Of a DNA stretch of 64,000 bases, positions 29,920 through 49,547 are shown in pieces. How positions within the stretch are numbered: the first letter of the stretch is position 1; every line of letters begins with the position of its first letter. Position numbers and translations under genes: made by a program. The notes under the pieces were generated by a model. The model had not been told where the DNA came from, ran no database searches, and saw only the letters and a list, made by a program, of their open reading frames with translations. This DNA is from Acidimicrobiales bacterium (GTDB lineage Bacteria; Actinomycetota; Acidimicrobiia; Acidimicrobiales; RAAP-2): assembly GCA_035503015.1 (NCBI GenBank), contig DATJTU010000118.1, positions 573 to 64,572 on the forward strand. The letters are read 5' to 3'.

Positions 29920-31648
29920 CGGTGTTCCCCGTTCCTCCCGTGGTGCTGGGCGTGGTCGTTGTCGACTGCTTCGGTCCTGAGGTCGTCGTCGCGATCGACG
30001 TCGATGTCGTGGTCGTGCGCTTCGGGGCGGTCGTGGGTGCCGCAGTCGTCGTGGTCGTCGTGGCCTTCGCTGCGCGGCTCTTGTGCTTGTGGGCGCCCGT
30101 CGTCGTGGTGGTCGTCACAGGCGATCCGGAGTTGCCCGCCTGCTGGAACCCGGGGACTTGGCTGGTGTTCCCTGGCGCGGACGGCCCCACTGGCGGCGTC
30201 CGCAACGGCGAGGTGCCGCCGTCGAGGGCAGCCAGTACGGAGTCGTCATTGCCCTCCATGCCCAACGCCCACGCGCCGACGCCGAGCAGCTGCGATCCCG
30301 TGGCCTGCTGGACCTTGGCTGCCAGCGTGTTGATGTTGTCGAAGAAGACCTGATGCCACTGGCCACCCGTTTGGTAGGACGTCCACGCCGTCTGCGTTGC
30401 TGCGTCCCAATAGGTGGGTCCGGATGCCATGGCCTGGGCGTAGGTCACTGCCTGCGACGGACCCGTCGCCGCGTCGCCGAGAGCGGGACCGGTGGTCGGT
30501 TCGTCGTAACCGAAGAGTGGCAGTCCGAGGATGACCTTGGAGGCGCCGGCTGCGGCTGTGTACTGGGCGATGTAGCTCGCGTCCGCGTCGCCGGCGTTCC
30601 CGTTGCCCTGGGCCGGGCCCACGTTCACGTCGTACGCCATGACGAAGAAGGCGTCGACCCACTTGCTGAGGCCGGCGATGTCGTAGAAGCCCGAGGAGTC
30701 GCCGGCTGACGAGGCGTAGGTCGCCATCGTGAGCTGGTAGTGCTGGTTGGTGGCGTGCAGCATGAAGTCGACCTGCGACACCAGGTTGTCGAGGCCCGCC
30801 TGATCACCGTCATCGGTCCCCTCGAGATCGAGGTTCACCCCGTCGAGGTTCTTCTCCTTCACGAGTTCGGTCAGCTGCTTGCCGAGTGTGACGCCTGCGT
30901 TGGGATCGTGGGTGAGCGCGTCGAGTGACGAGTTGGAGAAGTCGGTCGCGGTCAAGACCACTCGGTCGCCCGCCTGGTGCGCCGCGTTCACCAGGTTTGT
31001 GAGGTCCTGACTCTCGTATCCGTTCCAGCCTGGTCCCGACTCTTGGATCGAGCCGTCGGGGTTCACGTCGACGCTGAAGTACGCGATAGTCGAGAAGTCG
31101 GTGACCGGGAACTGTGATGCCTGCGGGAGCGACCAATACGGCACGTACCCGAACACTTCGTGCGCCGACGTCGGCGCGGCCTGTGCAACCTGCGGCGGCA
31201 CCGGATTCGGTGCCGACGACGCCGGCGCGAGGTGCAGGTTGCCATGGCCGTTGATGAAGCGGTCAGCTGTGGGGGTGGCCGACACCCGAACGTGTGCGGG
31301 AGGCGCGCCTCCGCTCGTCGCCATCGTCAAGCCAGCGGCCACGGTCGCACTCAGCACGACGAGGCTTCCCATGGCAATGGCAACCTTGCGCGGCGACACT
31401 CGCTCGCGCTTGATGACGGGGGCTTCGGACTGTCGATCGGCCTGCTGCTCTAGATCGCGGTAGGACGAGACCGAAGCCAACACGTCACCCGCGCTGGCCG
31501 CGGGCCCTGCCCCCTGTGGGTTCGGGTCGGTGTAGATCGCAGTCAGTGAGATGGACTCGAGCAGATTGACGGTGTCAGGCGCGACCGCGTCGGCGGCCTG
31601 CTTCTTCGCGAACGGCCCTCGCCGCCCCGTCTCTCGCCGTCTCCGCAT
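29882..31648 (-). CDS. Membrane-anchored glycoside hydrolase family 18 domain protein with a Thr-rich tail
   Basis: N-terminal TM VAIAMGSLVVLSATVAAGL. GH18 barrel blocks FGYVPYWS and LDGVNLDLEG (a DxxDxDxE variant with Asn at the second Asp), then FFVMAYD and VGAWALGME. The C-terminal ~80 aa are Thr-rich. Confidence 0.8.
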   Translation of the reverse strand: MRRRRETGRRGPFAKKQAADAVAPDTVNLLESISLTAIYTDPNPQGAGPAASAGDVLASVSSYRDLEQQADRQSEAPVIKRERVSPRKVAIAMGSLVVLSATVAAGLTMATSGGAPPAHVRVSATPTADRFINGHGNLHLAPASSAPNPVPPQVAQAAPTSAHEVFGYVPYWSLPQASQFPVTDFSTIAYFSVDVNPDGSIQESGPGWNGYESQDLTNLVNAAHQAGDRVVLTATDFSNSSLDALTHDPNAGVTLGKQLTELVKEKNLDGVNLDLEGTDDGDQAGLDNLVSQVDFMLHATNQHYQLTMATYASSAGDSSGFYDIAGLSKWVDAFFVMAYDVNVGPAQGNGNAGDADASYIAQYTAAAGASKVILGLPLFGYDEPTTGPALGDAATGPSQAVTYAQAMASGPTYWDAATQTAWTSYQTGGQWHQVFFDNINTLAAKVQQATGSQLLGVGAWALGMEGNDDSVLAALDGGTSPLRTPPVGPSAPGNTSQVPGFQQAGNSGSPVTTTTTTGAHKHKSRAAKATTTTTTAAPTTAPKRTTTTSTSIATTTSGPKQSTTTTPSTTGGTGNTGASSTTTTGAQP

Positions 31649-32935: not shown

Positions 32936-34864
32936 CTACTGGCCCTGCGGGCTGCCGTCCGTGGTCTCGGTGATGCAGTAACCAACCGGCGCCGTCGGGC
33001 TGGCCGTGACGGTGCTGAGGGTGGCGCTGTCATCCTCGGCCTGGTACGAGCCGCTGATCGCCGAGTTGTCGGTGTCGAGGTGGTCAGCCGAGAAGTTCCA
33101 CGGCGAGCCGCTCTCGTTGGCAGCGTTGTACTTGGAGGTGCTCAGCCCGTCGTTCCACGCCGGGTGCGGAATGCCGGTCGCTGTCGAGTTGTAGCCGGGG
33201 ACCGAGGTGTCGGTCTGGCCGTCCTCGACCTGCAGGTTCGGCAGCGGGAAGAAGCCCTGGTTCGTGATCGCCGTGTCGATCTCCGCCCGGTAGGTCAACC
33301 CGGTGTTCGGGTCGATCTCGGTGTTGGTCGCAGGCTTGCACATGAACCCGTCCTCACTGACGACGTTCAGGGCCGCAGGCGCGCTCGCCGGCAGGTTCGG
33401 GTTGTTGCCGTTCGAGTACACGTTGTACAGGAGGCGGTCACCCGGGAACTGGCTCCCCGTCAGGCCAGGCAGCTGCGAGTTGATGCTGGCCTGGTTGACG
33501 CTGACTCCGTTCCACGCCGTGCCGAGCTGGACTGCGTTCGGGACCGACGCGTTGGTCGAGGTGCCAGCGCAGAGCGGCAGCGTCGAGTTCTGCGTCGTGG
33601 TGTTCGGCGTGCACTCCTTCTGGTACTTCCCGTAGGAGAAGAAGAAGATCGCGTCGCCCACCGGAGCGCCGTGACCCGCGCCAGTGCCGTTGTTCCCGAG
33701 AATCGAGGAGGTCTCGTTCTCGAAGATGATCTGCTTGGCCGGCCAGTTGGAAGCGCTGGTCGGGAAGCTGGCCCCGGTCGCGCTCGCCCACGTGGACTCG
33801 GTACCCGAGCCGTTCTGCGCCCAGTAGGCGTAGATCGGCGTGTTCGGGCAGCTCGCGTCACTCGGGTCGAGGCTGTTCCAGGTCACGCTCGGCGTGCCGC
33901 TGCTGTAGGTCTCGTTCCAGATGCTCTTCAGCATGGCCGTCGTGATGTTGTTAGCCCCGATCGACGAGATGCACTTGTTGGCGTCGGTGTTCAAGCCGTT
34001 GTACTTCGTCCAGTAGAGGTAGCTCACCGCGTCCTCGGCGTAGGCGACGAAGTTCAAGCCCTGGTAGTCCCCACCGCTCTTGATGCTCGGTGCGCGAGAC
34101 GAACGAGCGACGTCGAGCGGCGAGACGTTCACCGGGCCAACGCCCGACGGGTCGTCGATGCCGTTCGAGTGGCCGACCGTGGTCGCGTTGCCGGTGCCCT
34201 CGAGCTCGTCGATGCCGTTGCCCGAGCCGTAGGAGGGCTCCTCAACGAGCACGTCGTTGAACGGGTTCTGCTGTCCCCACGTGAGGAAGCCGTTCTCACC
34301 CTGCTGGGGGTTGTAGTCGACTGTCAGCGTGTCACCCGTGGCGCTGCCCGTGGCGGCGATGCCGACCTTGAGCTTGCCCGTGGCGGCACCGAACGTCTTG
34401 ACCACGTCACCGGCCGGGATCACGCCGGCGCTGTCGGTGATCAGGGCGCCAGGGCCGATGTTGGTGTTTCCAGCGAGGCTGGACGCCACGAACTTCTTCG
34501 AACCGGCCGTGATGTTGGCGGTGGCCGTGACGGTCAGCCCTGCCGGCTGTGCCGCACCCTGCTCACCGTTGAGGCCCGGGCACCCGTAGTCGAGCGGCTG
34601 AGCGTTCGGCGAAGCCTGGCCGGCGAGGTCACAACCAGGGGACTGGTTGAAGATGTCCGACTCGGCCTGCATCAACAGGTACGCGGTGTTCGAGCCGCCC
34701 TGAACCACGAGGTAGTTCTGGGCGTTCGCGTTGTCCGCGTTCCCGTTGTTGACGTTCTGGGCGGCGAGGGCAGGACTGGCGAACCCGATCGCCAGCGCCG
34801 ACGCGCCCACCAGTGTGGCGCCGATCCGCAAAGAGCGGTGGCGCCCCAACAGCCTTTTCAGCAT
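32936..34864 (-). CDS. Secreted, highly divergent PstS-fold (PBP_like_2-type) substrate-binding-like protein
   Basis: Signal peptide ...GASALAIGFASPALAA. Degenerate PstS blocks QGGSNTAYLL, AQNGSGTESTWAS, GDAIFFFSYGKY, FPGDRLLYNVY and NQGFFPLP. A GGAG RBS precedes the ATG (aaggagacccatcaacATG). Confidence 0.6.
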   Translation of the reverse strand: MLKRLLGRHRSLRIGATLVGASALAIGFASPALAAQNVNNGNADNANAQNYLVVQGGSNTAYLLMQAESDIFNQSPGCDLAGQASPNAQPLDYGCPGLNGEQGAAQPAGLTVTATANITAGSKKFVASSLAGNTNIGPGALITDSAGVIPAGDVVKTFGAATGKLKVGIAATGSATGDTLTVDYNPQQGENGFLTWGQQNPFNDVLVEEPSYGSGNGIDELEGTGNATTVGHSNGIDDPSGVGPVNVSPLDVARSSRAPSIKSGGDYQGLNFVAYAEDAVSYLYWTKYNGLNTDANKCISSIGANNITTAMLKSIWNETYSSGTPSVTWNSLDPSDASCPNTPIYAYWAQNGSGTESTWASATGASFPTSASNWPAKQIIFENETSSILGNNGTGAGHGAPVGDAIFFFSYGKYQKECTPNTTTQNSTLPLCAGTSTNASVPNAVQLGTAWNGVSVNQASINSQLPGLTGSQFPGDRLLYNVYSNGNNPNLPASAPAALNVVSEDGFMCKPATNTEIDPNTGLTYRAEIDTAITNQGFFPLPNLQVEDGQTDTSVPGYNSTATGIPHPAWNDGLSTSKYNAANESGSPWNFSADHLDTDNSAISGSYQAEDDSATLSTVTASPTAPVGYCITETTDGSPQGQ

Positions 34865-35046
34865 GTTGATGGGTCTCCTTGTTGTCAGTTGTTCTCGGTC
34901 CGGCGCTCGCCGACCCGGCAGTCAAAGGGCTCCGCAGTACCACGCCTGATCCCTTCGCCGCCGCGCACCTTAGAAAACCCGAGTTAACGTTCCGTGAACG
35001 CAGTGCACACCCACAAAGAAATGTTCGTGTCTGTTTTCACATCACG

Positions 35047-35104: not shown

Positions 35105-35701
35105 TCAGGTTCCTCCGGAATTGCCCCCGAGACCCGGACCGCCGCCCGTCGGGTTCACGAAGACCTTGGCCACGAACCCCGAGGGTTCAAGGGTGTACGA
35201 CACCGGGCCGCCGTTGGGAGGGGTCCAGGTGAACGTGCCGCCGGGAGGGATCGTCCCCGAGTCGACGGGGTAGAACTTGAAGTCGTCGAAGATGATCCGC
35301 TGCGGGCTCTTGGTGAGGTTGTACCAGACCACAGGCGTCCCCCCGCTGGACTGGAGCTCCTGCGGGAAGACTCGCCCTGCCTTGATGATGATGTTCTGCC
35401 CCGGATTGAGGCCGGGCTGAATGGTCTGGCCCTGCTCATTCGGGAGGGTCGTGGTGGGGTCGGCCGCACCGATCGAGCCCGTGCCGTAACTCACTCGCAT
35501 CGGTGCGTTGGTTGCGGACTGGCCCTTGGGTTGTGCGCCCACGAGCTTGTCCGACGACGTCGTGGTGGACGACTGCTGGCTCGATCCTGCGCCGGCACCC
35601 CCGCCGCATGCGGCCAACCCCAAGGCAGGAAGGGACAGCATCAGCACGGTGCCGAAGAGCGTGGCGGCGCGTCGGCGCCGAAAACCCAGATGAAGCCGCA
35701 T
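35105..35701 (-). CDS. Lipoprotein (lipobox LGLAAC), beta-sandwich/cupredoxin-like impression
   Basis: The ATG at 35699-35701 gives MRLHLGFRRRRAATLFGTVLMLSLPALGLAACGGG. The mature part includes IIIKAGRVFPQEL...VVWYNLTKSPQRIIFDD...IPPGGTFTWT. No obvious Cu ligands. Confidence 0.55.
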   Translation of the reverse strand: MRLHLGFRRRRAATLFGTVLMLSLPALGLAACGGGAGAGSSQQSSTTTSSDKLVGAQPKGQSATNAPMRVSYGTGSIGAADPTTTLPNEQGQTIQPGLNPGQNIIIKAGRVFPQELQSSGGTPVVWYNLTKSPQRIIFDDFKFYPVDSGTIPPGGTFTWTPPNGGPVSYTLEPSGFVAKVFVNPTGGGPGLGGNSGGT

Positions 35702-35720
35702 TACACCGACACTCCTCACG

Positions 35721-36752
35721 TCACACCGTGGCGGGCAAGAACCCGATGATGCTCTCGCAGGTGAACAGTGCGACGAGGAGCAGCACCGGCACGGCGAGAA
35801 CGTACACCACGACCGGCTGATCCCAATGTCGGAGCAACCACGCGGCAACGCTGAGAAGCGCGAAGAACAAGAGGCACCAGAATACGGCGAGGAGGCCTGA
35901 CGCCGAATCCCCCGTCAGCCCGAGCTCGGCTTGGTCCGCATGGAACTTCGGCTTCGTGGTGCCGGGGAGCGGCTTGCCATCGAGGGTGGCCAACACTGCG
36001 AGCCTGCCCTGCGGGAAGATCCCCGACGCCGCTGTCACCAGCGTCAGGCGGTTGGCCTTTGTCTGCGTCACGACGTCGTGGCGGCCACCGTGCGCGTAGA
36101 CGACTCTCGTCACCGTGTAGCTGTAGGTGCCGAATCCATCCACCACCTTGATCAGCTGCCCCTTCTTGAGCGATCCGATTCCGCCGAAAGGCGCCCCGAA
36201 TGTCGCGCGGCGTCCTGCAATTACGGCGTTCCCGGGTTGCCCCGGCATCGACGTCGTCGGCATGTGTCCCGGTCCGCTCCGCAGGTCCTGGGCATCACTG
36301 CCCTCGACGACGGCGTCCACGACGTGGAGCGAGGGAATCTCGAGAATCGCGACGGGACTGCCCTCGGTTGGCGTTTTTCCCTGCGCGAGCTCGTACGTCT
36401 TGGCTGGGTTGGCCGAGATCTGTTGCAAGAGGTTGTGCTGCGCTCGTGCGGCGGTGAGGGGTGTGAACAAATAGATGTAGGCAAGCAGGAGAATGATCAA
36501 TACGCCCAGGCCGAAGATAAGAGGCCCGGCCACGCGTGGCCGCAACACCACGGCCAAGCCAGCGCCGACCCAGCCGGCAACGCGGTCGTACAGCACGCGA
36601 AGCTTCGTCGGCTCCTGACCCCGGACCTCTTGCCCGAGGACGTCCGATACGTTCGGGGGCACCGGCCCTTGGGGGTGCTCCGCGCCATCTGACATGTGCT
36701 CCGTGCCGGCCGACACCTCCTCGGCCTGGTCCAAGAAGGTGAGGCCCTCCAT
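35721..36752 (-). CDS. Sortase (class E-like) homologue lacking the catalytic His and Cys
   Basis: N-terminal TM, then the sortase-fold blocks VAILEIPSL, LRSGPGHMPTTSMPGQPGNAVIAGRRATFGAPF (canonical AGHR) and NRLTLVTAASG (canonical TLxTC). The Arg in QGRLAVLA is retained. There are extra C-terminal TM helices. The ATG shares one nt with the upstream TGA. Confidence 0.75.
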   Translation of the reverse strand: MEGLTFLDQAEEVSAGTEHMSDGAEHPQGPVPPNVSDVLGQEVRGQEPTKLRVLYDRVAGWVGAGLAVVLRPRVAGPLIFGLGVLIILLLAYIYLFTPLTAARAQHNLLQQISANPAKTYELAQGKTPTEGSPVAILEIPSLHVVDAVVEGSDAQDLRSGPGHMPTTSMPGQPGNAVIAGRRATFGAPFGGIGSLKKGQLIKVVDGFGTYSYTVTRVVYAHGGRHDVVTQTKANRLTLVTAASGIFPQGRLAVLATLDGKPLPGTTKPKFHADQAELGLTGDSASGLLAVFWCLLFFALLSVAAWLLRHWDQPVVVYVLAVPVLLLVALFTCESIIGFLPATV

Positions 36753-39481
36753 CAGCCCTCCTCCGGCGGCCCTGGGCCGCTCGGGCTGCCGATGTCCTCA
36801 CCGTCTCCTGCAGCGCGTGGTCTTCGCAGGCCCGGATACATGTAAAGCAACGGTCCGCCGAGCAGGCACAACAAGGCAAGGATCAACAGAGTGGGCACGA
36901 AGTACCGGTTGTCGCCCACGGTGACCGTGATGAAGTGCCCGATGAAGCCACCGCCTGACGAGCCGTTGCCGGAACTGGCTGCGGTCCCGGCGGGTGTGGA
37001 GGCGCCAGGCGACGAGCCATGGCCGCTTCCACCTCTGGAGCTGGCCGACGTGCTGCCGCCGTGCGCTCCGGCCGCTGCCGCGTTCGTCGTTGCGCCCGCG
37101 CCACCGCCCGTGCTCGCGTTCGTCGACGACCCAGAGCCGCTGCCCGAACCGCCCGACCCGGAACCGCTCGACCCAGTGATGTCGGTGGCGATCTCGGTCA
37201 TCGCCTGGTTGTACAAGCTGTCGGGTAGAGCGACGTATCCGGCGGGGAGCGGCGACGAGCTGGTCCCGTCGTCGTGCGAGTAATTGACCAAGTTCGTCAG
37301 GAGGTTCTTCAACTCGGTGGCCTGGGTGGCGGAAGACTGCGGATTCGTCGAGACGAGCGCGTACGTGACCATGGGCAAGGGATACGCAGCCGGGTCACCC
37401 GTGTCGTCGTAGTTCGGCGTGATGGTGCCGTCAGGGTTGGCCTTGGCGTCGTTGATGGCGGCAGTGATGCCTGACGCGCTCGGGGCGACGAAGGCTCCAG
37501 CGGCGTTCTGGAGGCTGGCGGGAAGCAGCCCGTAGAAGTCGGCCTCCGAGCTGTCCATGGCGCTGAACGCGAACCCGCCGCTCCCGCCGTACGAGGCCAC
37601 CGCCTTCTGCATGATGCCCGTCGCGCTGAGAGGCTGGCTCGAGGGCTGATAGTTGTATTGGTTGGCACCTGCCTTGTCGGCCATGTCGATCGGGAAGGCC
37701 GACACCCCTTGGCATTTGCTCGCGGGGTACGACACGTTGTGAAGGACCAAACCTGGCTCGTTGCCGTCGGGGTTCTTGTTCTTTCTCGTCTTTCCTGCGA
37801 CCGGGTCTTGCTCCGCGTTGGTAAGCAGCTGCTGACCGCTCAGGATATCGGTCACGTTCGCTGTGCCGCCGTAGGGAAGGGTGACGGGATACGCAGTGTT
37901 GGGCGCGTCGCACATCCACGACGTGCTCTCGAAGGTCGCGCCGCTTCCCGTCGAGGGCCACATCGCCGCGAGAGTCTCTTCGTTCACGGGACTGCCGCCT
38001 CGCTGGAACGGCCACGGGTTCAAGAGCGCGAAGCCCGTGTCGCCGAAGTAGAGCTGCTGTGGGGGTGTGGCGCCACCAGTTTCGCCGATGTACTCGTTTC
38101 CGGGATCGTTTGCGAAGTTGCCGAGATAATTGAACTGGGTGAAAGAGAGGCGCTTCGACTCGATGAGCGCCGCTGGTTGAGACACGTCGACGTTGGCGGT
38201 CTTTCCCTTCGAGGTCTCCACCAGCCACGATTTCCCCTGGTTGGTCGTCGTCTCTGTGCACGAGCTTCCCGAAATCTCGTTGCAGACGTCGTCGTTCGGC
38301 CTGCCGAGCCCGGCAACGGCACTGGTCCAGGTTTGAGTCATGATGCCCGCTGCCTGCGCGGGTGTGAGCTGGTATGAGTCCAATGGGTAGGTGATCGCGT
38401 TCGAACCGAGCGTGATGCCGGCTGCGCCATCAAAGGCGATCTCGGTCGCCGACACAGCGATCGGGATGTACGCGACCTTCCCGCCTGCGGCCTTTTCCTC
38501 GGCCAACGTCCCCGGGTCCTCCGGGTCGTCGGTGAAGGTCACGGGCACCGAGCCGTTGATGACGTTGTAGATAGGGCAGTTCGTTCCCCCACCGGTCGCG
38601 CAACCCGAATCGTCAGTCGAGTTGAGCTCGGTCGGCAATGCAGCGACGCCGTTCGGTCCGTTGCAGGTGGCCTGTCCCGCGGCGGGGATGAACTGGGTGG
38701 CGCTGTAGGAGGCCGTCACGTTCATGACGGGAGCGTTCGCGCATCCGTTTCCGCCCGAGCTGAATGTCAACGGGAAGATAACGGTGTGGCCGATGGGAGA
38801 GTACGGATTCGTCCCATTGGAACTGTTCGGAGGTAGACCCGCCCCCAAGAGGTCGTTGATGTCCGCGCTCGGAATGTCCATGACCTCGACACCGCACGGA
38901 TTCGGTCCGTTGTCACAGAAGAAGGAGCTGGTCTGGTTCGTGGGAGGAAGCAGGAGCTGGTCGCTCGTCTGGGAGATGATCGGATTCGTGCCGGAAACGG
39001 TTGGATCAGCGAACTCTGACGGGATCGCCATGATGGTCTGGTTCGACGTCACCGTCCCGTACTCGTACTGCTCCGGTTCGGCGGTGGGTGTCTGCCCCGG
39101 TTGGGGTACCGAGGAGGCGCACTGTGGCTCGTTGAGGACCTGTGTGCCGGTGCCCTTGAGCGAGCAATACGCGACTTCCAGCTCGTCCCCGACTGGGACG
39201 CCGCTGACGTCGACGTACACCGCCTGATTGAGCCCTACGTTCGTGACGGGACCCGCATCCGCCGTGAACGGCGTGGTGACCTGCTCGCAACTTGCGGTCT
39301 CAGGCGGGCAGGACGACGAGTCGTGCGGCGTCACGATTTGCGTGCCCTGGGGCATCACCAGTTTCGCCTTGCGAGCCACCGCAGCCCCGCCGTGCCCCGA
39401 GGTGAGGACGAGGAGGGTGAGGCACGCAACCACCAGCGCTGCGGTCAACCGCAGGACGCGCCCGGAGCGGGTCAGAGCCAT
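36752..39481 (-). CDS. 909-aa secreted PstS-fold giant with a Gly/Ser linker and a C-terminal TM anchor
   Basis: ATG at 39479-39481 (MALTRSGRVLRLTAALVVACLTLLVL). Degenerate PstS blocks KVAYIPIAVSATEIAF, MWPSTGSGATFESTSW, GGFAFSAMD, AAYPLPMVTYALVS and LPAGYVALPDSL. A GSSGSGSGGSGSGSGSS linker precedes the TM LLILALLCLLGGPLLYMY. Confidence 0.65.
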   Translation of the reverse strand: MALTRSGRVLRLTAALVVACLTLLVLTSGHGGAAVARKAKLVMPQGTQIVTPHDSSSCPPETASCEQVTTPFTADAGPVTNVGLNQAVYVDVSGVPVGDELEVAYCSLKGTGTQVLNEPQCASSVPQPGQTPTAEPEQYEYGTVTSNQTIMAIPSEFADPTVSGTNPIISQTSDQLLLPPTNQTSSFFCDNGPNPCGVEVMDIPSADINDLLGAGLPPNSSNGTNPYSPIGHTVIFPLTFSSGGNGCANAPVMNVTASYSATQFIPAAGQATCNGPNGVAALPTELNSTDDSGCATGGGTNCPIYNVINGSVPVTFTDDPEDPGTLAEEKAAGGKVAYIPIAVSATEIAFDGAAGITLGSNAITYPLDSYQLTPAQAAGIMTQTWTSAVAGLGRPNDDVCNEISGSSCTETTTNQGKSWLVETSKGKTANVDVSQPAALIESKRLSFTQFNYLGNFANDPGNEYIGETGGATPPQQLYFGDTGFALLNPWPFQRGGSPVNEETLAAMWPSTGSGATFESTSWMCDAPNTAYPVTLPYGGTANVTDILSGQQLLTNAEQDPVAGKTRKNKNPDGNEPGLVLHNVSYPASKCQGVSAFPIDMADKAGANQYNYQPSSQPLSATGIMQKAVASYGGSGGFAFSAMDSSEADFYGLLPASLQNAAGAFVAPSASGITAAINDAKANPDGTITPNYDDTGDPAAYPLPMVTYALVSTNPQSSATQATELKNLLTNLVNYSHDDGTSSSPLPAGYVALPDSLYNQAMTEIATDITGSSGSGSGGSGSGSGSSTNASTGGGAGATTNAAAAGAHGGSTSASSRGGSGHGSSPGASTPAGTAASSGNGSSGGGFIGHFITVTVGDNRYFVPTLLILALLCLLGGPLLYMYPGLRRPRAAGDGEDIGSPSGPGPPEEG

Positions 39482-39482
39482 C

Positions 39483-41159
39483 TCACGTGGCTCCCGTCTC
39501 GCTGCCTCGCTCGCGCCGGCGCCTCGTCGTGACCCACAGGACGAGCGGGACTCCGATGATGACGAGGGCGAACACGGTCGACCACAGGGCAACCTGCGCC
39601 GGCGACCACTTGGAGAGCGCGCCGGCGGACGCATTCGTCAGTCCGCTTTGGCGGGCAAGGGCCTGCTGCGCGTTGTTCAAGGGGTTGAGCGCCTTCTTCA
39701 ACTGAGCGGCGGCAGCGGCCGCAGACGCGGCGCTCGTGGCGCCGGCCGTGGTGGTCGAGGTCCCGGTCCCTCCCTTGGACGTGCTCCCGCCGACGGCCGT
39801 CGTCGCGTGGGCGGCTCCAACGGCAGCAACCGCCGCGCCGGCACCGGTCAGGTCGCTGCCCGGATTCGTGGTGCCGACCACCGTGGGGCCGCCGACGGGT
39901 TGGAGCGCGCCAGTGATGTACGGATTTGCGCACGTCGAAGGAGTCGGAGGGGGAGGCGACGTGCCGCCCGGGAGCCGGCCCGCCGCCTGGAAATCGTCCT
40001 CGACGAGGTTCGGAGGTATCGGTGAGTAACCCAAACTCGCCATTTGGCTCTGGCCCCCGCACGCGACATAGGAGATGAACTGGGACAGCTCGGATCCCTG
40101 CCCCGAGCCCATCGTGACTGGGCCGCCGCTGTCGCACGCGAAGTTCTGCGCTGCGGCCTGCGACGGCACGCACTGCGCGATGAAGTAGCTGTAGGCCGAG
40201 ATCGGATACGCGTCCGGGTTGGGGTTGGTGTAGACGCCACCGAGGTTCTGGGTCAGGTCGGAATAGAGGATCGCCGCCGTCAGCGCGACCGCGACGTTGT
40301 ACGAGTCCGGCTGCACGGGCTGGCCGGCGGCGTTGATCACCGATGCGACGGGAAGATGGACGTTCTTCGCGTATGCGTACTCGACGTAGGCGATCCCGCC
40401 TTGGTTCTGCGCCGGGCCTTGCGAGGCCGCGTCGGAACCGTTGACGCCCTCGAGACTGTTCAAGTTCTGCGGGACGCCGTTACTGAACGACGCCCAGGTG
40501 GCGGACGGCGTGCCGGGGGTGGTGGGCACCGATGCTTCTTGCTGAAACGTGGTGATCGGGCCCGGGTCCACGTGCAAGAAGTAGTCGGAGAGGAGATAGT
40601 TCTCGCCGGACGCGTCACTGCGGTAGTAGGCCGTGATCGGCTGGTTCGGCATCGGAATGTTGGGGTTCAGGGCCTGGATCTGCGGGTTGTTCCAGTTCTT
40701 GATCGAGCCGGTGAAGATCCCGAGCAACGTCGGGCCATTCAGGATCAGGTTGGTGACCCGCTGCCCGTTGGCGGCCTGGAGGTTGTACTCGAAGGCCAGG
40801 CCGCCGGCGACGTCGGGCATGTACTGGAACGGGTAGGGCACCTGCGAGGTGGAGCAAATCGACTGCTGGGTCGCGTAGGAGATGTCCGTCGCCCCGAAGT
40901 CGACCGTCTTTTGGCAGAACGCGTTCATGCCGAGGATCGAACTGGACACGGTGAAGTTGATGTCGCCGCCGTATTCCTCGTTGAACTGGCCTTCCCACTG
41001 GGTGATGGCGACACCGGCGAAGCTCGACCCCGTGGAGATGAGCTGGGGGTTCGAGGCGCCCGCCGGATCGGGCGTTGAGCCCAGTTGGCCGGCGATGCCG
41101 ATGACACCCGTCAGCGTCACGGCGACCCAGAGCAGGGCGGCAAGTGGGCGTCGCGTCAT
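39483..41159 (-). CDS. pstS: Phosphate-binding protein PstS family with a C-terminal extension and TM anchor
   Basis: Blocks [60 protein letters not shown] and LGYSPIPP. The ATG overlaps the pstB stop (ATGA). The tail is [20 protein letters not shown] plus RRRRER. Confidence 0.8.
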
Positions 41160-42031
41160 CCGAACCTCCCGTGTACGTAGTCAGCGGTCCGCGGATCTGT
41201 GGGATTGGAGAACATCATCTCGGTAGGCCCGGACTCGACGACGTGCCCCGGTTGACCCTCGGCCGCGAGGAAGAAAGCGCACATGTCGGAAACCCGCTGG
41301 GCCTGTTGCATGTTGTGGGTCACGATGATCACGGTGACCTCGTGGGCGATCTCGCGGATGGTCTCCTCGATCCGGTTGGTCGACGTGGGGTCCAAGGCTG
41401 AGCAGGGCTCGTCCATGAGGAGCACCCTCGGACGCACCGCCAGGGCGCGCGCGATGCAGAGCCGTTGCTGCTGACCACCGGACAGCGAGCCACCCAACTC
41501 GTTCAGGCGCTCCTTGACTTCGTTCCACAGGCCGGCCTTGGTGAGCATCTCCTCGACGAGCAAGCGTCGGTCATGCGAGCTGAGCTTGATGCGCGAGAAC
41601 TTCAGACCGGCCAGCACGTTCTCCTCGATGGTCATGGCGGGGAACGGGTTGGGCTTCTGGAACACCATGCCGATGTGCTTGCGGCTCTCGGTTGCGCGCA
41701 GGCCGCCCCCGTAGATGTCGACGCCGTCCAGCTCGACCCGGCCCGCCAGCTGGGCTCCGGGAACGAGCTCGTGCATCCGGTTGAGGATCCGCAGGTAGGT
41801 GGACTTGCCGCACCCCGATGGGCCGATCAACGCCGTCACCTCGTTCGGCTCCATGGTCAACGAGACCATTTCGAGGACGAGGCGGCCACTGAACCAGGCG
41901 CAGACCCCGTATGTCTCGAGCTTCGCCGGCTGGACGATCGGCGTCGCTACCGTCGAGGGCTGAGCAACGGTCGGCACCTCGGCGGTCGGTGCTTCGCCCG
42001 GCCTCGAGCGCTCGCGTGAGAAGACCTTCAT
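41156..42031 (-). CDS. pstB: Phosphate ABC transporter ATP-binding protein
   Basis: 291 aa from the ATG at 42029-42031. Blocks [65 protein letters not shown] and ADYVHGRFG. Confidence 0.95.
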
Positions 42032-43278
42032 TCGCTCACCATCTGCTTCACCCAGTGGAACGGCGCGACGACGATCCGACGCAACCGGCCCTTCTTGGTC
42101 GAACGCCGTCCGAGCAACCGTGCCACCACGAACAGGATCAGCACGAGCACCAGGAGGACGAAGGCGGCGGTGAACGCGACCTGCTGCACCACGGCCTGGG
42201 CCTGGAAGATGTTCTGGTACAGGACGAGCGGCAGAGCGCCTTGCGGACCGTGGAAGACGTTGGCGTTCAAGGTGTTGGCGCCGAAGGCGGTAAAGATCAG
42301 CGGGGCCGTCTCCCCGGCGGCGATGGCGACACCGAGCACGACAGCGGTGACGAGCCCCGAGCGGGCAGTCGGGAGGACGACCTGGCGCACAGTCCGCCAC
42401 TCGGACGCCCCCAGCGCGAGCGACGCTTCTCGGAGCCCACCGGGGACCACGCGCAGCACCTCCTCGGTCGTCCTCGTCACCGAGGGAAGCATGAGGACGA
42501 ACAGCGCCATCGCCGCGGCGAATCCGGAGTAGCCGAGAGTGTGGGGCACGATGAAAATCGCGTAGATGAACACGCCGGCGACGATCGAGGGAACGCCGCT
42601 CATCGCCGTCACGATGGTGCGGACGAACCGCGTCCCAAACCCCCCGACCTCGTTGAGGAAGACGGCGGTCAGGAACGCCAGCGGGACGGCCATGGCGGCC
42701 GCCAATCCGACCTGCTCCAGGGTTCCCACGATCGCGTGGCCGACTCCCACCTGGTTGAACAGTGAGGTGCCTTCGGCCGGCTGGTAGTCCGCCAAGGTCC
42801 GCCACAAGAACCCGATCGTGAAGTGGGCGACGCCTCGGATGAACACCCAGATGACGATGTAGAGCAAGGCTCCGATGACAACCGCCGCGCATGACCCCAC
42901 GACAGTCGTGATCACACGGTCGGTAGCAGCGGAACGATCGACGACCTGGTTGGTGACCACCCAGAAGACGGCGAGGAAGCAGGCATACCAGCAGAGCCCG
43001 AAGCCGAAAGCACCCGACAACAAGGTCAGTTGGTAGAAGAGAATCCACACGACCGCGAACGAGGACACGGCGGAACCGACCAAGAGTGCAACGCCCTGCG
43101 CTCCGAAGTCTCGCGTTCGCCGCGGCGGCGCCAGGGGTGCCACCCGCCGGACGTCGCCGGTCAGGACGGCGTGGCTCAGCGTGCCGTCGAGCCCTCCTGT
43201 TGCACGGGCTGCCGCACCATTTCCGTTCGCCGCAGTGGGCGCCTCGAGGAGATCGCGTACGTCGAGGGGGCTGGTCAC
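42028..43278 (-). CDS. pstA: Phosphate ABC transporter permease PstA
   Basis: GTG at 43276-43278 overlaps the pstC stop (GTGA). EAA-loop region [22 protein letters not shown]. Six TM helices plus an N-terminal extension. Confidence 0.9.
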
Positions 43279-44270
43279 AGCTCCACCCCCTTCCCGCTTC
43301 GGGAACGGTTGACGATCAGGGAGGCGATCAGGTTGACGATGAGGGTGAACGTGAACAGCACGAACCCGAGCATCAGCAAGTCGTCCGTGCCGAGCTTTCC
43401 GCCTGCACCGAATTCGGCCGCGATGAACGAGGCGACCGTCGTCCCGCCGTGCTCGAGGATGTGCGGCGAGATCACGAAGTCCAGGCCGAGAAGCACGTAG
43501 ACGGCGATCGTCTCGCCCAACGCCCGGCCGAGGCCCAGCATCGACGCGCCGATGATGCCGCCCCGACCGAACGGAAGGACCACCGTGCGGATCATCTGCG
43601 ACTTGGTGGCACCGAGCGCGAGCGCCCCTTCGCGCTCTCCGGGCGGCGCCAGACTGAACACCTCGCGAGACACCGAGGCCACGATGGGCACGATCATCAG
43701 CCCGACGATGAGTCCCGCGATGAAGAAGGAGCCGTTGAAGGGGGGTGTCGAGGCCGAAAAGAGTGGGATGAAGGAGAGATGGCGCACCATCCACGAGGTC
43801 GTCCCGGTGATCTCCGGTTGGAACTGGTGTAACGCCCAAAGGCCGAAGATGATGCTCGGGATGGCGGCGCCGAGGTCGACCATCGCGATGAGTGCCCGCT
43901 TCGCCTGGATCGGCGCGTACTCGTTGATGAACAGCGCGGTTCCGATTGCGACCGGGACTCCGAAAATGACCGCAACCAGTGACGTGACGATGGTGCCGTA
44001 CATCTGTGCCAGCGCACCGAAGTGATAGGGCTTGTGGAGGGTCGAGTATCCCGACGTGGTGAAGTAGCGAAAGCCCATCGCCCGCAGAGCGGGAAGGCCG
44101 CGCCAGAGCAAGAAGAAGCCGATCAGGAAGAGGATGGCGAATGCGGTGAACCCCGCCGCTCTCGCCACCGCACGGAAGATCCGGTCTTCCTTCGATCGGT
44201 CATTGGGGACCGTGATGGGTCGCGGCACGGCGTGGCCCACAGCGGGGGACGCAAGGGTGTCGGTGGACAT
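43275..44270 (-). CDS. pstC: Phosphate ABC transporter permease PstC
   Basis: 331 aa. EAA-loop [22 protein letters not shown], followed by [11 protein letters not shown]. Confidence 0.9.
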
Positions 44271-44308: not shown

Positions 44309-44372
44309 TACCGGGATCAAGCTACCGGCCGGAGATTACCGGACCCTGTCGTGGAGGTGAACGCCCGGTAAC
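44309..44372 (-). promoter_or_regulatory. Periodic TACCGG repeats upstream of pstC
   Basis: TACCGG occurs at 44309, 44323 and 44337 (exact 14-nt spacing), with an inverted copy CCGGTA at 44365 (28 nt further on). The site lies 39-100 nt upstream of the pstC ATG (44270). The 9-mer CCCGGTAAC at 44364-44372 recurs as its reverse complement GTTACCGGG at 35055-35063. Confidence 0.35.
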
Positions 44373-44459: not shown

Positions 44460-46277
44460 TCACGGACTGGCGACGTTCGCGTTCCCTGTCCCGCTCACCG
44501 CGGCGTAATCGCTGTCACCCGAGTAGGCGGCTGTAATCGCGTACGGCGCGTTGGCGTTCATCAACTGCCCGGCGTCGATCACGCATTTGGCGAGGCCCTG
44601 ATTGTTGACGTTGGTGCTGATGTTGACGACGTTCGAACCGCTGTCGCAGGTAAGCGTGTCCGAGGAAGAATCCGCTCCCGTGATGGTGAACGTGACGGTT
44701 CCCGACGGGGCGCCGAGAGATCCGGACGCCCTTGCGTCGGGGATGATCGCCGTCTTGATGACCAGCTTGCCTTCGTTCTTGACCGGGTTGTGGTTCAAGA
44801 ACAGCTCCATCGTCGTCGGAACCGTTGTGACCTCGATGTGACCGACGTCGGTGTTCGTGCTCGCCGACAGGTTTCCGTTCCCCTCATAGTTGGCGACCAC
44901 GTCCCAGAACCCGGGGCTGAGCCCTTCGGGGACGTTGATCGTGATCCTGTTCCGATTGTTGGTCACGTCCTTGGCGTTCGGAGCCGGAAGCACATAGCTG
45001 TTCCCAACCGTGCCGTCCTGCGCGGTGCACTGCGCAGCGCCGTTGAGGCAGATGGCGTACTCGACGACACCGATAGGTGCTCCCATTCCAGGCGTCGCTG
45101 TCTGAATCTGGACACCGAACGAGAACCCCTGCGACGCCAGGTACGAGCCCTGGAAGTTCATCAAGGTGGTTGTCGTCGCGGCCTTGCTGACCGGCTGCAC
45201 CAATGTTCCCGCGACGGGCGACTTGAAGTTCGGGTCCGACAGCGTCGCCGAGACCGTGTAAGACAGGCCCTTGCCCTGCAGGCCCGCCGGGACGCTGCAC
45301 GTCGCGCTCAGGCTCGAGATCGGTTGCGTGTCGCCGCCCATGCAGGTCGCGGTGAGCGGCGGTCCCCCGTTGTTGCTGACGAGGCTGAAGACGACATTGC
45401 CGGTCGGGGTGCCCGACCCCGGTGGGTTGACTGCGATGTTGGCCGTGAAGGTGACCGCCTGACCCGTCACGAGGGTGCTCGCCGAGCTCATCACCGTGAC
45501 CGTCGTCGTCGCCTTCGCGACGCCTTGCGTCGCCGTTCCGGTGCTCGGGTGATAGTTCTTGTCGCCGGAGTAACTCGCCGTGACAGTGTAGGGCGACCCG
45601 GCTGCGAACAGTCCAGCCGAGACGGCGCACTGGGCCATGTCGTTGGCGTCGAGGGTCGGCATGTCACCGTCGTCGCAGTTCACCGTGCTGCCGTCGTGTC
45701 CAGTGATGGCGAACGTCACGGTGCCCGTCGGGACCCCCGTCGAGGGACTCACTGGTGCGACCACCGCCGTGAACGTCACGCCCTCGCCGGTGACAGTCGG
45801 GTTGGACGAGGCGGTGACGGCTGTCGTCGTGGAGCCGAGATGGATCACCTCTGGCGTCGGACCGGCGCTACTTGGCGCGAACGTGCTGTCACCCGAATAG
45901 CTGGCCGTCACCTGGTACGGCGAGGCGGCCGCGAACAGGCCGGCGCTGAACGAACACTGGGCCTCACTGCCGGTCGACGCCGGGGTCAGATTGATGGTGT
46001 CGCTCCCGCCGTCGCAGACGGGCGTCGACGAGTCCGCACCGACGATCGTGAAGGTCACCGTGCCGGTCGGAGTTTGCACGTTGTGGGTGACCGTTGCCGT
46101 GAAGGTGATCGGGGCGCCGGTGAGGGCGGGCACGCTCGACGTGAGAACGGTTGTCGTGGCCTTCGACCCCGTCGCCGCCGCCGGCGAGGAGACGAGCGCC
46201 AAGCTTGCGAGCGCCACCACCGAAGCGATGCTCGCCACTCGAAAAGCGATCTGCCGCGCTGCCCGCGCATGCCCCAT
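44460..46277 (-). CDS. Secreted bacterial Ig-like domain repeat protein
   Basis: The ATG at 46275-46277 is preceded by GGGAGG. Signal peptide ...ALASLALVSSPAAATG. Five to six repeats of about 95 aa each carry PTGTVTF, paired Cys and a YTVTASYSGD-type ending. Confidence 0.75.
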   Translation of the reverse strand: MGHARAARQIAFRVASIASVVALASLALVSSPAAATGSKATTTVLTSSVPALTGAPITFTATVTHNVQTPTGTVTFTIVGADSSTPVCDGGSDTINLTPASTGSEAQCSFSAGLFAAASPYQVTASYSGDSTFAPSSAGPTPEVIHLGSTTTAVTASSNPTVTGEGVTFTAVVAPVSPSTGVPTGTVTFAITGHDGSTVNCDDGDMPTLDANDMAQCAVSAGLFAAGSPYTVTASYSGDKNYHPSTGTATQGVAKATTTVTVMSSASTLVTGQAVTFTANIAVNPPGSGTPTGNVVFSLVSNNGGPPLTATCMGGDTQPISSLSATCSVPAGLQGKGLSYTVSATLSDPNFKSPVAGTLVQPVSKAATTTTLMNFQGSYLASQGFSFGVQIQTATPGMGAPIGVVEYAICLNGAAQCTAQDGTVGNSYVLPAPNAKDVTNNRNRITINVPEGLSPGFWDVVANYEGNGNLSASTNTDVGHIEVTTVPTTMELFLNHNPVKNEGKLVIKTAIIPDARASGSLGAPSGTVTFTITGADSSSDTLTCDSGSNVVNISTNVNNQGLAKCVIDAGQLMNANAPYAITAAYSGDSDYAAVSGTGNANVASP

Positions 46278-46465: not shown

Positions 46466-47824
46466 TTAAGGGTTCGTTCGCGCGGCGTTCGCGCCTTGTC
46501 CGGCTGGTGTCCACACTCCTCCTGCGATGTGGACGAAGGACGCGCCCGAGACGTTGCCTCGCCGTCCGTACCCGGTGACCACGTCCCGCGAGAAGGCCGC
46601 CGTCGCTCCGGAGAGCCCGTAGACGGCCCCTTCTGCGGATCCGGACGGAAAGACCAGGTGGGAATCGGCCACGGTGACATTGCCGCCTTGGAGCTGGACG
46701 CAGCCGACGTACGCACTGGTCCCACAGCGAAGGACGTCCGAGGTGAAGACGAAGGGCCCCCGGAGCCGCCCCTTCTTGCCGCCACGGCCGTGGCGGACGA
46801 CCAAGATGGCCGATCCGGCCTGCGGCATCGTCATCGTGCAGTGCTCCACGGTGATGTCGTGGGTGCCCGACGCATTGCCCGACCCCCCGTTCGCGAAGAA
46901 CACGTCGCCACCCGAGGCGACGCAACCGTCGATCGTGACATCGGTCGCGCCCTCGCCCGTCTGGTCCGCCTCCACGTCAAAGGTGTCGAGGCCCACATTC
47001 CTCAGGATGATGTCGCTGACCTGTGCGCCGCTGATGGAGGCGAGCGTGAGGCCCTGCCGTCCGGCTCCGTCGATGGTCACCCCATCGATCGTGACGTTCG
47101 ACGCTGGGGCGATGATCATTCCCGAGTTGTGGTTTGCACCGCCCCGGAGCGGGGCGAGGGTGATGCCGTCACCGAACGTGTCCGTGATCGTCACGCCGCG
47201 GACCACCGCGTTCGCTGTTCCTTGGAAGTCGATCCCGGCGGCAAAGGCAAGGCGGGGATGGAAGCCCCCCGTGTTCGCCCCGGATATCTGCATCGACTCG
47301 AGCGTCACGTGTGAGCCTCCGACCACGGCGAACGCTGCGTGACCCTTCGCTGACGCCGCTTTGCCCTTCTGATCGCTCGGGACTGCCGTGGACCGGTACT
47401 GCCCCCCATACACGGTCAGGCCCTGGGGGTTCTTGAGCCTGATGCCCTCGTTGACCTCGTAGCACGCGCCGGAACGCATCACCACGGTCGTGTCAGGGGC
47501 GAGTGCTTTGAACCAGGACTTCAGGGCTGCGCTTACGTCGACCGAACAGTCCGATGCGATCGTGGCTGGAGGAGCCACGCTCGGACCGGCTGGAACCGGT
47601 ACCGAGATGGCGCCTCCGGTCAGGACCGGTTGCGCGGGCAACGTCGTGGCCGTCGAGGGTTGGGTCGACGGGGTCGGCCCCCGTTGCGTCGTATGCGTGC
47701 GACTCGTACCTGTCGACGAAGGATGCGCAGGGGACGACGAGCACGCCGCGAGGAAGCCGGCTCCCAGAGCGAACGAGAGCACGACGGCGATTCGACGCAG
47801 ACCGCCGCCGCCGAATCGGCCCAT
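46466..47824 (-). CDS. Right-handed parallel beta-helix repeat lipoprotein (paralogue of 15802..17481)
   Basis: Lipobox GAGFLAACSSSP. Blocks shared with the paralogue: TIASDCSVDVS, DGITLAPLRGG, IDGAGRQGLTLASISGA and FDVEADQTGEGA. Confidence 0.7.
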   Translation of the reverse strand: MGRFGGGGLRRIAVVLSFALGAGFLAACSSSPAHPSSTGTSRTHTTQRGPTPSTQPSTATTLPAQPVLTGGAISVPVPAGPSVAPPATIASDCSVDVSAALKSWFKALAPDTTVVMRSGACYEVNEGIRLKNPQGLTVYGGQYRSTAVPSDQKGKAASAKGHAAFAVVGGSHVTLESMQISGANTGGFHPRLAFAAGIDFQGTANAVVRGVTITDTFGDGITLAPLRGGANHNSGMIIAPASNVTIDGVTIDGAGRQGLTLASISGAQVSDIILRNVGLDTFDVEADQTGEGATDVTIDGCVASGGDVFFANGGSGNASGTHDITVEHCTMTMPQAGSAILVVRHGRGGKKGRLRGPFVFTSDVLRCGTSAYVGCVQLQGGNVTVADSHLVFPSGSAEGAVYGLSGATAAFSRDVVTGYGRRGNVSGASFVHIAGGVWTPAGQGANAARTNP

Positions 47825-48577: not shown

Positions 48578-49547
48578 CGCCGGAGGCGAGCCTTGCTGTG
48601 GCGGCAGGTGCATTTTGCGCTTCGCTCGCAGCAACGCCACTCGCGGCCCGATTGGCCACGCATGTCGGGTTGCTCGACCGACCCGGTCCACTCAAGCCAC
48701 ACACGCGCGCCACGCCGTACCTCGGCGGTCTCGGCGTGGCCGCCGGTGTGGGCCTCGGCGCAGCCGTCGTCATGCCCTGGTTGCTCGTGCCGGCAGGGAT
48801 GGCACTTGCGCTGGGCACGGCGGACGACGTCCGACCGCTTCCCCCCGCGCTTCGCGTGCTAGGGGAACTGGCGATCGGTCTGGCGCTGGCCGCGGTGGTC
48901 TCGACACGCGTCGGCGCAGCAGGGTACGTCCTGGTGCCGGCCGCCACACTTGCCCTCATCAACGGGTTCAATCTCCTCGACGGGCTCGACGCGCTCTGCG
49001 GCGCCGTCGCCCTGGCGGCGGCCATCGGATTCAGCGCGCTTCTCACCGGGGACCCGCGGACCCTCGCGTTAGCACTCGCGGCAACGATGGCCGCATTCTT
49101 GATCTTCAATCGCCCGCCCGCAAAGGTGTATCTCGGCGACGGCGGCGCCTACCTGGTGGCTGTCGTGGTGACGGCGCTGCTGGCGTGCGCCTGGTCGCCT
49201 GCACAGTCACGGTCGACGGGAATTGCCGCCCTTGCGGTCGTCGCGCTGCCCGTCGTCGAGGTCGTACTGGCACTGTTTCGGCGCGTGCGCTCTGGATCAT
49301 CACTCGTCGCAGGCGATCGCGATCACCCATATGACGTACTCGTTCGATCGGGTTGGAGCATCCGCCGGACGGTGAGCGCGTACATGCTCGCGGAACTGGC
49401 GGCCGTTGCGCTTGCCCTCGCCGCCTCACACCTCGTGGACCCGTTTGCCTGGGTCCTGACCGCCCTCACCGCATTGGGATTGCTCGCCACAGGATTCAGA
49501 GCCGCGTCGGCTGCGCCGAACCACAAACCGATGGGCGAGCGCTCGAC

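Follow-up and report, generated by a model that had tools for sequence, protein, structure and literature searches.

A divergent Pst importer, whose operon also encodes a catalytically dead sortase, was found on the minus strand of a 64,000-nt stretch of DNA (hereafter the window), which is a contig piece from an uncultured Acidimicrobiales metagenome-assembled genome (MAG) with 65-70% G+C. The sortase homologue is called here the pseudo-sortase. The reading that we favour, at a probability of roughly 55%, is that the locus encodes a Pho-regulated Pst importer in which the pseudo-sortase would be retained as a non-catalytic partner of anchored binding proteins. The importer formed by PstC, PstA and PstB is probably a high-affinity phosphate ATP-binding cassette (ABC) importer under Pho regulation. 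The evidence comes from the residues of the proteins, from the conservation of the locus in related genomes, and from a group of active relatives in which adjacent PstS proteins carry sorting signals.

The pst locus and its dead sortase

Seven open reading frames (ORFs) follow one another from 44270 to 35105, encoding PstC, PstA, PstB, PstS, a 909-amino-acid (aa) protein called here the giant, the pseudo-sortase and a small lipoprotein (Table 1). The original prediction, made from the letters of the window, had described these seven genes as coupled, and all six junctions agreed with it exactly, each being an overlap or a gap of no more than 19 nt. On the minus strand, pstC and pstA share a GTGA overlap (43275-43278), in which the GTG start of pstA lies over the stop of pstC. 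The pstA/pstB and pstB/PstS junctions are ATGA overlaps (42028-42031 and 41156-41159), the PstS and giant genes are 1 nt apart (position 39482), and the giant and sortase genes meet at TGATG (36750-36754). The 19-nt gap before the lipoprotein gene (35702-35720) holds a GAGGAG ribosome-binding site ahead of its ATG. Terminator-like sites were not above chance (8 found versus 8.8 expected from shuffling) and none lay inside a junction; a consensus promoter scan gave 0 promoters and was uninformative. The placement of PstS after pstB in that description was also correct, and a relative with an active sortase (L087) likewise has PstS after pstB and before the sortase. The seven-gene extent held as far as it went, but the conserved block in fact takes in an eighth gene, which a true intergenic spacer sets apart from the block upstream. 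Relic sorting signals and active relatives had been overlooked as well.

The transporter core was assigned from family profiles. PstC (249.6 bits against TIGR02138) and PstA (230.3 bits against TIGR00974) scored over the equivalog cut-offs of 196.45 and 193.45, respectively. The best family match of PstB by far was TIGR00972 (320 bits, E 8.8e-96), with the equivalog cut-off of 343.2 not reached. PstS scored 94.7 bits against PF12849, and its clear best family match was TIGR00975 at 176.8 bits, where the cut-off of 205 was not reached.

PstS consists of a signal peptide, a PstS domain (residues ~40-395), a linker rich in Pro, Gly, Ala and Thr, a relic motif ALSKWSP, a C-terminal transmembrane helix and an RRRR tail. 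When PstS was aligned to the E. coli and Yersinia proteins, the phosphate ligands T10, F11, S38, D56, R135, S139, G140 and T141 corresponded to S46, F47, S74, D92, R180, S184, G185 and E186, and these positions were conserved in 15 orthologues from both clades. At the T141 position, Asp was present in two E. coli entries among the matches (sequences u8512 and u39404), and M. tuberculosis PstS-1 also has an acidic residue there. Asp56 of E. coli PstS selects protonated phosphate over sulfate. A C-terminal transmembrane helix with a basic tail was found in 61 of the 73 PstS orthologues of pseudo-sortase loci. As judged from this alignment, the true receptor is PstS, with an intact orthophosphate ligand set and a predicted tether through a long flexible linker to the C-terminal membrane helix. 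With low-complexity linkers ~100 residues long, the binding domains would be able to extend into the wall.

The giant is composed of a signal peptide, a neocarzinostatin-like immunoglobulin (Ig) domain, a Cys-rich PstS-fold domain with large insertions, a Gly/Ser linker, and a C-terminal part with the conserved motif ITVTLGDxRFFVP, a transmembrane helix and a basic tail. BLASTP found no similarity of the giant to PstS or to the 642-aa product of the eighth gene, and Pfam alone found no domain in the giant, the lipoprotein or the 642-aa protein. A PstS fold, as originally proposed, was nevertheless borne out by profile-profile comparison and by structure. The giant family matched the PstS family in hhalign with 98.4% probability (E 9.5e-15), and its profile matched M. 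tuberculosis PstS-1 (E 1e-6). When the AlphaFold2 model was submitted to Foldseek, the top 20 matches were all PstS structures, with target-normalised template modelling scores of 0.64-0.72; the model has a low mean predicted local distance difference test (pLDDT) value of 60 and a confident C-lobe. The N-terminal domain of the model resembles macromomycin/neocarzinostatin. The equivalent of the ligand Arg135 is Pro509, and Pro is found at this position in 27 of 29 family members; therefore, the pocket is not a canonical phosphate site. The helix and basic tail are shared by 64 of the 74 giant orthologues in pseudo-sortase loci. The giant is a second anchored PstS paralogue, with a PstS fold and a changed pocket.

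The 642-aa protein carries the motifs GSGSNT and AQxGSGTESTW, and its ligand Arg is replaced. A search with its family profile yielded phosphate-binding proteins, among them 4gd5 (E 3.6e-5), 4q8r and 1twy. Three PstS-superfamily proteins are thus encoded at the locus, namely PstS, the giant and this secreted paralogue. The giant and the 642-aa protein can be compared with DING and other enlarged PstS-fold proteins, which are also PstS folds with insertions and whose DING structures are among the fold matches. The giant departs from these proteins in its Ig-like domain at the N-terminus, its numerous conserved cysteines, its membrane anchor and the replacement of the ligand Arg by Pro, and it shares no sequence relationship with DING past the fold.

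The pseudo-sortase has a cytoplasmic N-terminus, a first transmembrane helix, an extracytoplasmic class-E-like sortase domain, two more transmembrane helices and an LPATV end. It passed the cut-off of PF04203 (70.9 bits; cut-off 26.6) and did not reach that of the NCBIfam class_E_sortase model (87.9 bits; cut-off 160). The top Foldseek matches of its model were the class D and class E sortases 4d70, 5go5 and 5go6 (E 7.5e-12 to 1.8e-10). Class E sortases use a His-Cys-Arg triad, and a conserved Tyr in their beta3/beta4 loop reads the Ala of LAXTG (PMC5148588). In alignment with S. avermitilis SrtE, the AGHR of class E is AGRR in the pseudo-sortase, and in the family alignments LTLTTC is LTLVTA. 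The catalytic His is replaced by Arg181, the Cys by Ala241 and the class E Tyr by Met164; Arg250 of the triad and the conserved GPGH and GN..IAG.R..YG.PF motifs are retained. The dead sortase of the original prediction was thus confirmed at both residues. The pseudo-sortase resembles SrtE1 and SrtE2 of Streptomyces coelicolor (PMC5148588) in its beta-barrel fold, N-terminal transmembrane helix and cytoplasmic tail, and its active relatives in pst operons, like those enzymes, pair with LAxTG-bearing proteins. It differs from them in the triad, the family threshold, the Tyr, the LAxTG substrates and a presumably non-catalytic function, and also in its two extra C-terminal helices ending in LPxT-hydrophobic, a feature common to active relatives of its subfamily. 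The possibility that this C-terminus is an intramolecular pseudo-substrate was weakened because the 81 active relatives described below end similarly, in LLP(A/S)N(F/I/V/L/Y).

In public databases the pseudo-sortase is identical to GenBank HTU37574.1 ('sortase') and the giant to HTU37575.1 ('hypothetical protein'). Other dead proteins of the family, among them P0117, P0195 and P0204, are named 'sortase', 'sortase A', 'class E sortase' or 'LPXTG-site transpeptidase', and no NCBIfam or Pfam model splits pseudo-sortases from true sortases. The window protein should not be classed as a sortase enzyme, and such naming is an annotation error that is spreading through databases.

Table 1. Features of the pst locus in window coordinates, with the basis of each assignment.
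Feature	Coordinates	Strand	Basis
Candidate Pho-regulated promoter of pstC	44319..44372	-	11-nt-phased direct repeats with GTTCACC
pstC, phosphate ABC permease subunit, 331 aa	43275..44270	-	TIGR02138, PF00528
pstA, phosphate ABC permease subunit, 416 aa, N-terminal extension of ~120 aa	42028..43278	-	TIGR00974
pstB, ATPase subunit, 291 aa	41156..42031	-	TIGR00972, PF00005
PstS-type phosphate-binding protein, 558 aa	39483..41159	-	PF12849, TIGR00975, ligand alignment
Giant, 909 aa	36752..39481	-	hhalign, profile, AlphaFold2/Foldseek
Pseudo-sortase, 343 aa	35721..36752	-	PF04203, SrtE alignment, AlphaFold2 model
Small lipoprotein, 198 aa, cupredoxin-like domain of ~90 aa	35105..35701	-	lipobox, family profile
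Candidate separate Pho-type promoter of the eighth gene	34967..34999	-	direct-repeat pattern and conservation
Eighth gene, secreted 642-aa PstS-superfamily protein, no membrane anchor	32936..34864	-	family profile

Conservation of the locus and ancestry of the pseudo-sortase

A profile search with the sortase-like protein over species-representative genomes gave 80 loci, mostly from Acidimicrobiaceae/Acidimicrobiales MAGs, with seven from Pseudonocardiaceae, Frankiales or unclassified Actinomycetota MAGs. Genes of pst type adjoined the sortase homologue in 76 of the 80, far beyond chance, and the neighbourhood noted in the original prediction is hence a conserved one; the remaining four had very short flanks or, in L077, pstB alone nearby. 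The order pstC-pstA-pstB-PstS-giant-sortase was present in about 70 of the 80 loci, and at the junctions from pstA to the sortase gene the downstream ORF was already open at the upstream stop in 60-66 of these ~70. The eighth gene lay downstream of the pseudo-sortase in 66 of the 80.

The order was different in several loci. Those of Pseudonocardiaceae type read pstC-pstA-PstS-giant-(three unknown genes)-sortase-pstB or pstC-pstA-PstS-sortase-pstB, and one Acidimicrobiales locus read sortase-pstC-pstA-PstS. The pseudo-sortase gene is directly between PstS and pstB, without an intervening giant, in L079 and directly before pstC in L071. Distant family members from metagenomes (L083 and L084) have the same neighbours, and in L085 the module stands amid two PhoU genes, a second pst set and a two-component system (response regulator/histidine kinase). 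The linkage of the sortase gene with pst outlasts rearrangement and therefore argues for a functional tie. Several side features of these loci were also recorded. Three conserved ORFs (~260-335 aa each, without a Pfam domain) lie between giant and pseudo-sortase in L078 (7271-9317) and L082 (7052-9875), and an SLT_2 transglycosylase-like gene follows pstB in loci of Pseudonocardiaceae type. Downstream of the block, L082 (GCA_000763215.1, 14199-20906) has a DDE transposase and a cluster for arsenic resistance (LMWPc arsenate reductases, MIP channel, ArsR-type HTH and ArsA), and L083 has sugar transferases and sulfotransferases. A 980-aa ORF in L085 (8001-10943) joins neocarzinostatin-like, PBP_like_2 and pseudo-sortase parts, and may be a natural fusion or an indel artefact. 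It was dropped as Rosetta-stone evidence because its membrane topology is implausible and the long-read assembly may hold indels.

The family profile was also searched against 1.84 billion cluster representatives (clusters at 50% identity), and 1049 clusters were recovered at E<=1e-30. A family alignment of 144 sequences was built from the best 143 representatives and the window protein. In this alignment the His position is occupied by Arg in 111 sequences, His in 22 and Lys in 7, and the Cys position by Ser in 107, Ala in 21, Gly in 5 and Cys in 2. The Arg250 equivalent is retained in 108, and the C-terminus is (L/F)P(A/G/S)T-hydrophobic in about 120. The class E Tyr is present in 16 of the 144, versus 76 of the 81 active relatives. 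The pseudo-sortase ORF was intact in 80 of 80 species loci, and 35 columns were invariant over 23 sequences with identities down to 37%.

One of the two Cys-bearing members, P0416 of L087, has the full triad (AGHR, LTTCNP and TTRLVV). Its locus reads pstC-pstA-pstB-PstS-PstS-sortase, and the C-terminus of both PstS proteins consists of LARTG or LATTG, hydrophobic residues and RRR, in that order. Cell-wall sorting signals of class E have this form, with LAXTG preceding the hydrophobic segment and the basic tail (PMC5148588). A metagenome scan with P0416 as a single query found no relatives; an alignment-based scan recovered 80 more His-bearing relatives with the same three-helix architecture, which gives 81 active loci including L087. 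Among these 81 relatives, His is present in all, Cys in 80 and Arg in 79. Linkage to Pst was seen in L087, L105, L126, L132/L133 and L139, and most active relatives are not Pst-linked. Where PstS tails could be seen at the Pst-linked loci other than L087, the motif ahead of the anchor is LATTG, LALTG, MALTG or VAKTG, with a hydrophobic stretch and then RRR behind it. Two side observations were made on the active group. Its members form a large class-E-like subfamily (L088-L167; for example L096, 8001-8900, and L109, 8001-8858) with the two extra C-terminal transmembrane helices and the LLP(A/S)N(F/I/V/L/Y) end. In L087 (10501-12965), the active sortase is directly followed by a 236-aa protein ending in VPEAG-hydrophobic-RRR, which is PEP-CTERM-like, and by a 585-aa Exosortase_EpsH-family protein, so that sortase and exosortase systems would adjoin on this contig of 69% G+C.

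In pseudo-sortase loci, on the other hand, a cleavable motif is almost never present in PstS or the giant. The window proteins have the hydrophobic segment and basic tail only, together with the relic ALSKWSP, and no LAXTG. A graded series could be aligned, from ALATTGWSP in L105 to ALSGWSP in the window clade and ALSKWSP in the window itself. In the other clade, DAL(V/L)(A/S)A(T/S)x lies about 12 residues before the helix, and LAATG is intact in L020 and L065. These motifs indicate that the sortase-like protein descends from a class-E-type sortase of pst operons that had the adjacent PstS proteins as its substrates, and such an ancestry would account for the conserved linkage. Dedicated sortase-substrate pairs, such as pilus class C sortases and the 'marine' class GN with its single adjacent target, likewise place the gene beside its substrates, here former ones, with co-evolution of enzyme and signal. 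The window pair differs in that it persists without catalysis or a cleavage site and in that the substrates are binding proteins of an ABC transporter. In the full-text literature, we found no paper on sortase pseudoenzymes, Pst-linked sortases, PstS with sortase, or LAxTG-tagged binding proteins.

The original prediction had proposed an envelope-associated module built around a phosphate-type ABC importer. This part is strongly supported by the ~70-species linkage, by its survival of rearrangement in a second actinobacterial class and by the sortase-substrate ancestry. Capture of phospho- or sulfo-glycans, one of the roles suggested there, gained no support, as PstS keeps its orthophosphate ligands and PHO-box-like repeats lie upstream. 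Cell-surface display, the other role, applies only to the ancestors, whose sortase attached PstS to the wall.

Candidate Pho-type promoters and the substrate

The candidate promoter upstream of pstC contains direct repeats (GTTACCGGGC GTTCACCTCCA ... GGTAATCTCCG) with an exact GTTCACC, followed by GCCGG and a -10-like TAGCTT (44319-44324). In Streptomyces, the PHO box is made of 11-nt direct repeat units, with GTTCACC as its core and best-conserved stretch (PMC4415409). The pattern GTWACCNNNNGTTMAC occurs a single time in the 64-kb window (0.00 expected) and once per locus in 18 related loci, each time about 100 nt upstream of pstC. The element was conserved in the alignments of both clades. 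A regular expression for the PHO-like repeat gave no match in the distant clade, and alignment then revealed a slightly different form there, GTTAGCCnnCC-GTTCACCTTGG, 5 nt and TAGnTT. The spacer before the eighth gene contains GTTCACGGAAC GTTAAC direct repeats, 10 nt and a -10-like TAAGGT. Its pattern, GTTMACCNNNNGTTMAC, had 2 matches in the window versus 0.14 expected, and the element GTTCACGGAACGTT(A/T)AC followed by TAAGGT was strongly conserved upstream of eighth-gene orthologues in 9 species. Taken together, the repeats and their conservation support one putative Pho-type promoter before pstC and another before the eighth gene. The second match of the PHO-like pattern (GGTCACCGCCAGTTCAC; 8636-8652, plus strand) lies in a spacer beside a gene with a malate/lactate dehydrogenase domain and supports neither side.

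These features were compared with the PstSCAB systems of E. coli, Mycobacterium and the Streptomyces Pho regulon. The locus is similar to them in its PstC, PstA and PstB homologues, the canonical phosphate ligands of PstS, the upstream PHO-box-like 11-nt direct repeats with a GTTCACC core, and the presence of several PstS paralogues, as in M. tuberculosis. It departs from the canonical order pstS-pstC-pstA-pstB(-phoU) in having PstS after pstB, a Big_3_5 gene before pstC and no phoU nearby; no PhoU was detected among the window neighbours scanned. Moreover, the window PstS is anchored by a C-terminal transmembrane helix and not by lipid, PstS and PstB fall under the equivalog cut-offs, and two PstS-fold proteins with altered pockets, the pseudo-sortase and a cupredoxin-like lipoprotein are added to the set.

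Orthophosphate appears to be the most likely substrate because the anchored PstS keeps its ligand set and PHO-box-like repeats precede the operon. The foremost alternative, which we regard as improbable though ahead of the other rival explanations, is that another phospho-compound or oxyanion (arsenate, polyphosphate, an organophosphate or a phospho-glycan) is transported, with the giant and the secreted paralogue setting the specificity. The sub-threshold scores of PstS and PstB would agree with this, as would the loss of the ligand Arg from both the giant and the 642-aa protein, the glycan-related neighbours (GH18, beta-helix, DegT and Core-2 glycosyltransferases) and the ars cluster near the block in L082. 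However, the anchored PstS has the full phosphate ligand set including Asp56, PstC and PstA exceed their cut-offs, and the PHO-box-like elements, together with neighbours of the PhoU and PhoPR type, indicate a Pho regulon.

Retention of the pseudo-sortase and the genes around it

Under the favoured reading of a Pho-regulated importer with a non-catalytic partner, an ancestor would have anchored PstS to the wall with a class E sortase encoded in the operon. In the window lineage, the cleavage motif and the catalytic residues may have decayed together. With both cleavage motif and catalysis lost, the binding proteins would therefore stay in the membrane on their uncleaved sorting signals, and the pseudo-sortase would be kept as a non-catalytic membrane partner that still associates with the PstS and giant anchors, with PstCA, or with both. 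By recognising what is left of the signal, or the anchor, in PstS and the giant, it could hold both assembled beside PstCA. Auxiliary capture or scaffolding might then fall to the giant, the secreted paralogue and the cupredoxin-like lipoprotein. A stronger form of this proposal, that the pseudo-sortase is an obligatory non-catalytic Pst subunit that grips the uncleavable relic signals and docks the anchored receptors onto PstCA, is put forward only tentatively, and we doubt it more than we believe it. If true, this would make the pseudo-sortase the first pseudoenzyme of sortase fold to have a defined role, and also the first accessory of an ABC importer to have arisen from a sortase. The active relatives, in turn, would represent the first case of sortases devoted to anchoring a phosphate-binding protein to the wall, and the two groups would provide a paired 'before and after' system for the turning of an enzyme-substrate pair into a structural complex.

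Several points weigh against the favoured reading. When active sortases were scored by the pseudo-sortase hidden Markov model, the Pst-linked ones were not picked as the closest. No more than five or six Pst-linked loci were found among the active relatives, most of which lie elsewhere. The class E Tyr, thought to read the alanine of LAxTG, is gone from most pseudo-sortases, and therefore classical signal recognition may also be lost. As Ser takes the place of the Cys in 107 of the 144 aligned sequences, some family members may retain residual chemistry or have an altered one. In addition, the PHO-box assignment rests on likeness to Streptomyces sites, PstS and PstB are both under their NCBIfam equivalog cut-offs, and the AlphaFold2 models are of low confidence (pLDDT 64 and 60).

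The frequency of this Ser, with the mostly retained Arg250 and the 22 residual His, would fit an enzyme with altered chemistry, such as a Ser nucleophile, that processes or attaches PstS and the giant at a site other than LAxTG. We consider this unlikely. The nucleophile position is Ala in the window protein and in 21 of the 144 sequences and Gly in 5, the His has become Arg in 111, no replacement nucleophile-base pair is conserved across the family, and the partner proteins lack a cleavable motif.

The genes after PstS could also be an unrelated surface-protein module that shares the pst transcript, with the pseudo-sortase serving the giant alone in adhesion or wall organisation. The Ig-like N-terminal domain and non-canonical pocket of the giant, and the Big_3_5 surface proteins that are common as neighbours, would be consistent with such a module. 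Its probability is also low, since the pseudo-sortase gene keeps to pst genes where the giant does not intervene (L079, where it lies between PstS and pstB, and L071, where it precedes pstC), bona fide PstS proteins are the LAxTG substrates in active relatives, and the accessory proteins except the lipoprotein all belong to the PstS superfamily. That the pseudo-sortase is a functionless relic heading for loss would suit the disappearance of catalytic residues and substrate motif, but it is very improbable given intact ORFs in every species locus, the 35 invariant columns, 1049 clusters at 50% identity and a position kept through rearrangements.

Growth in peat and acidic soils, where these Acidimicrobiales and Pseudonocardiaceae-type bacteria occur (records include bog, SPRUCE and Danish soil MAGs), is limited by phosphate capture. 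The main candidate for phosphate import in these bacteria seems to differ in its construction from every Pst system studied. Pseudo-sortases form a large unstudied family of at least 1000 clusters at 50% identity, whose members are incapable of cysteine transpeptidation and yet are named sortases. The comparison of active enzymes with LAxTG-tagged PstS and dead enzymes with relic tags provides an evolutionary series. It also offers a testable idea, namely that monoderms position solute receptors across the thick wall, first covalently and later by a membrane-anchored complex.

The lipoprotein call of the original prediction was sound. Its lipobox is L-A-A-C32, and the Cys is invariant in 8 orthologues, distant ones included. 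The domain is kept in the distant loci L083, L084 and L085. Its profile weakly matches plastocyanin, amicyanin and the cupredoxin domain of copper nitrite reductase (E 1.7e-4 to 1e-3). Of the type 1 copper ligands (His, Cys, His and Met), the first His has Gln opposite it in the alignment, and the match does not extend to the C-terminal ligand loop. Membership of the lipoprotein in the block held in part, as the gene is present in distant relatives but missing from the largest sub-clade (41 loci).

Other genes around the block are related to the envelope. A Big_3_5 Ig-repeat surface protein gene (44460-46115, minus strand; ORF open to 46925) lies just upstream of the pstC promoter region, and a Big_3_5 gene at this position is kept in 20 close relatives; the Pseudonocardiaceae-type locus L081 is also flanked by Big_3_5 proteins. 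Envelope and glycan genes encoding GH18, right-handed beta-helix and DegT/DnrJ aminotransferase proteins and two Core-2/I-branching glycosyltransferases surround the block (29882-31648, 46466-47824 and 49353-54892).

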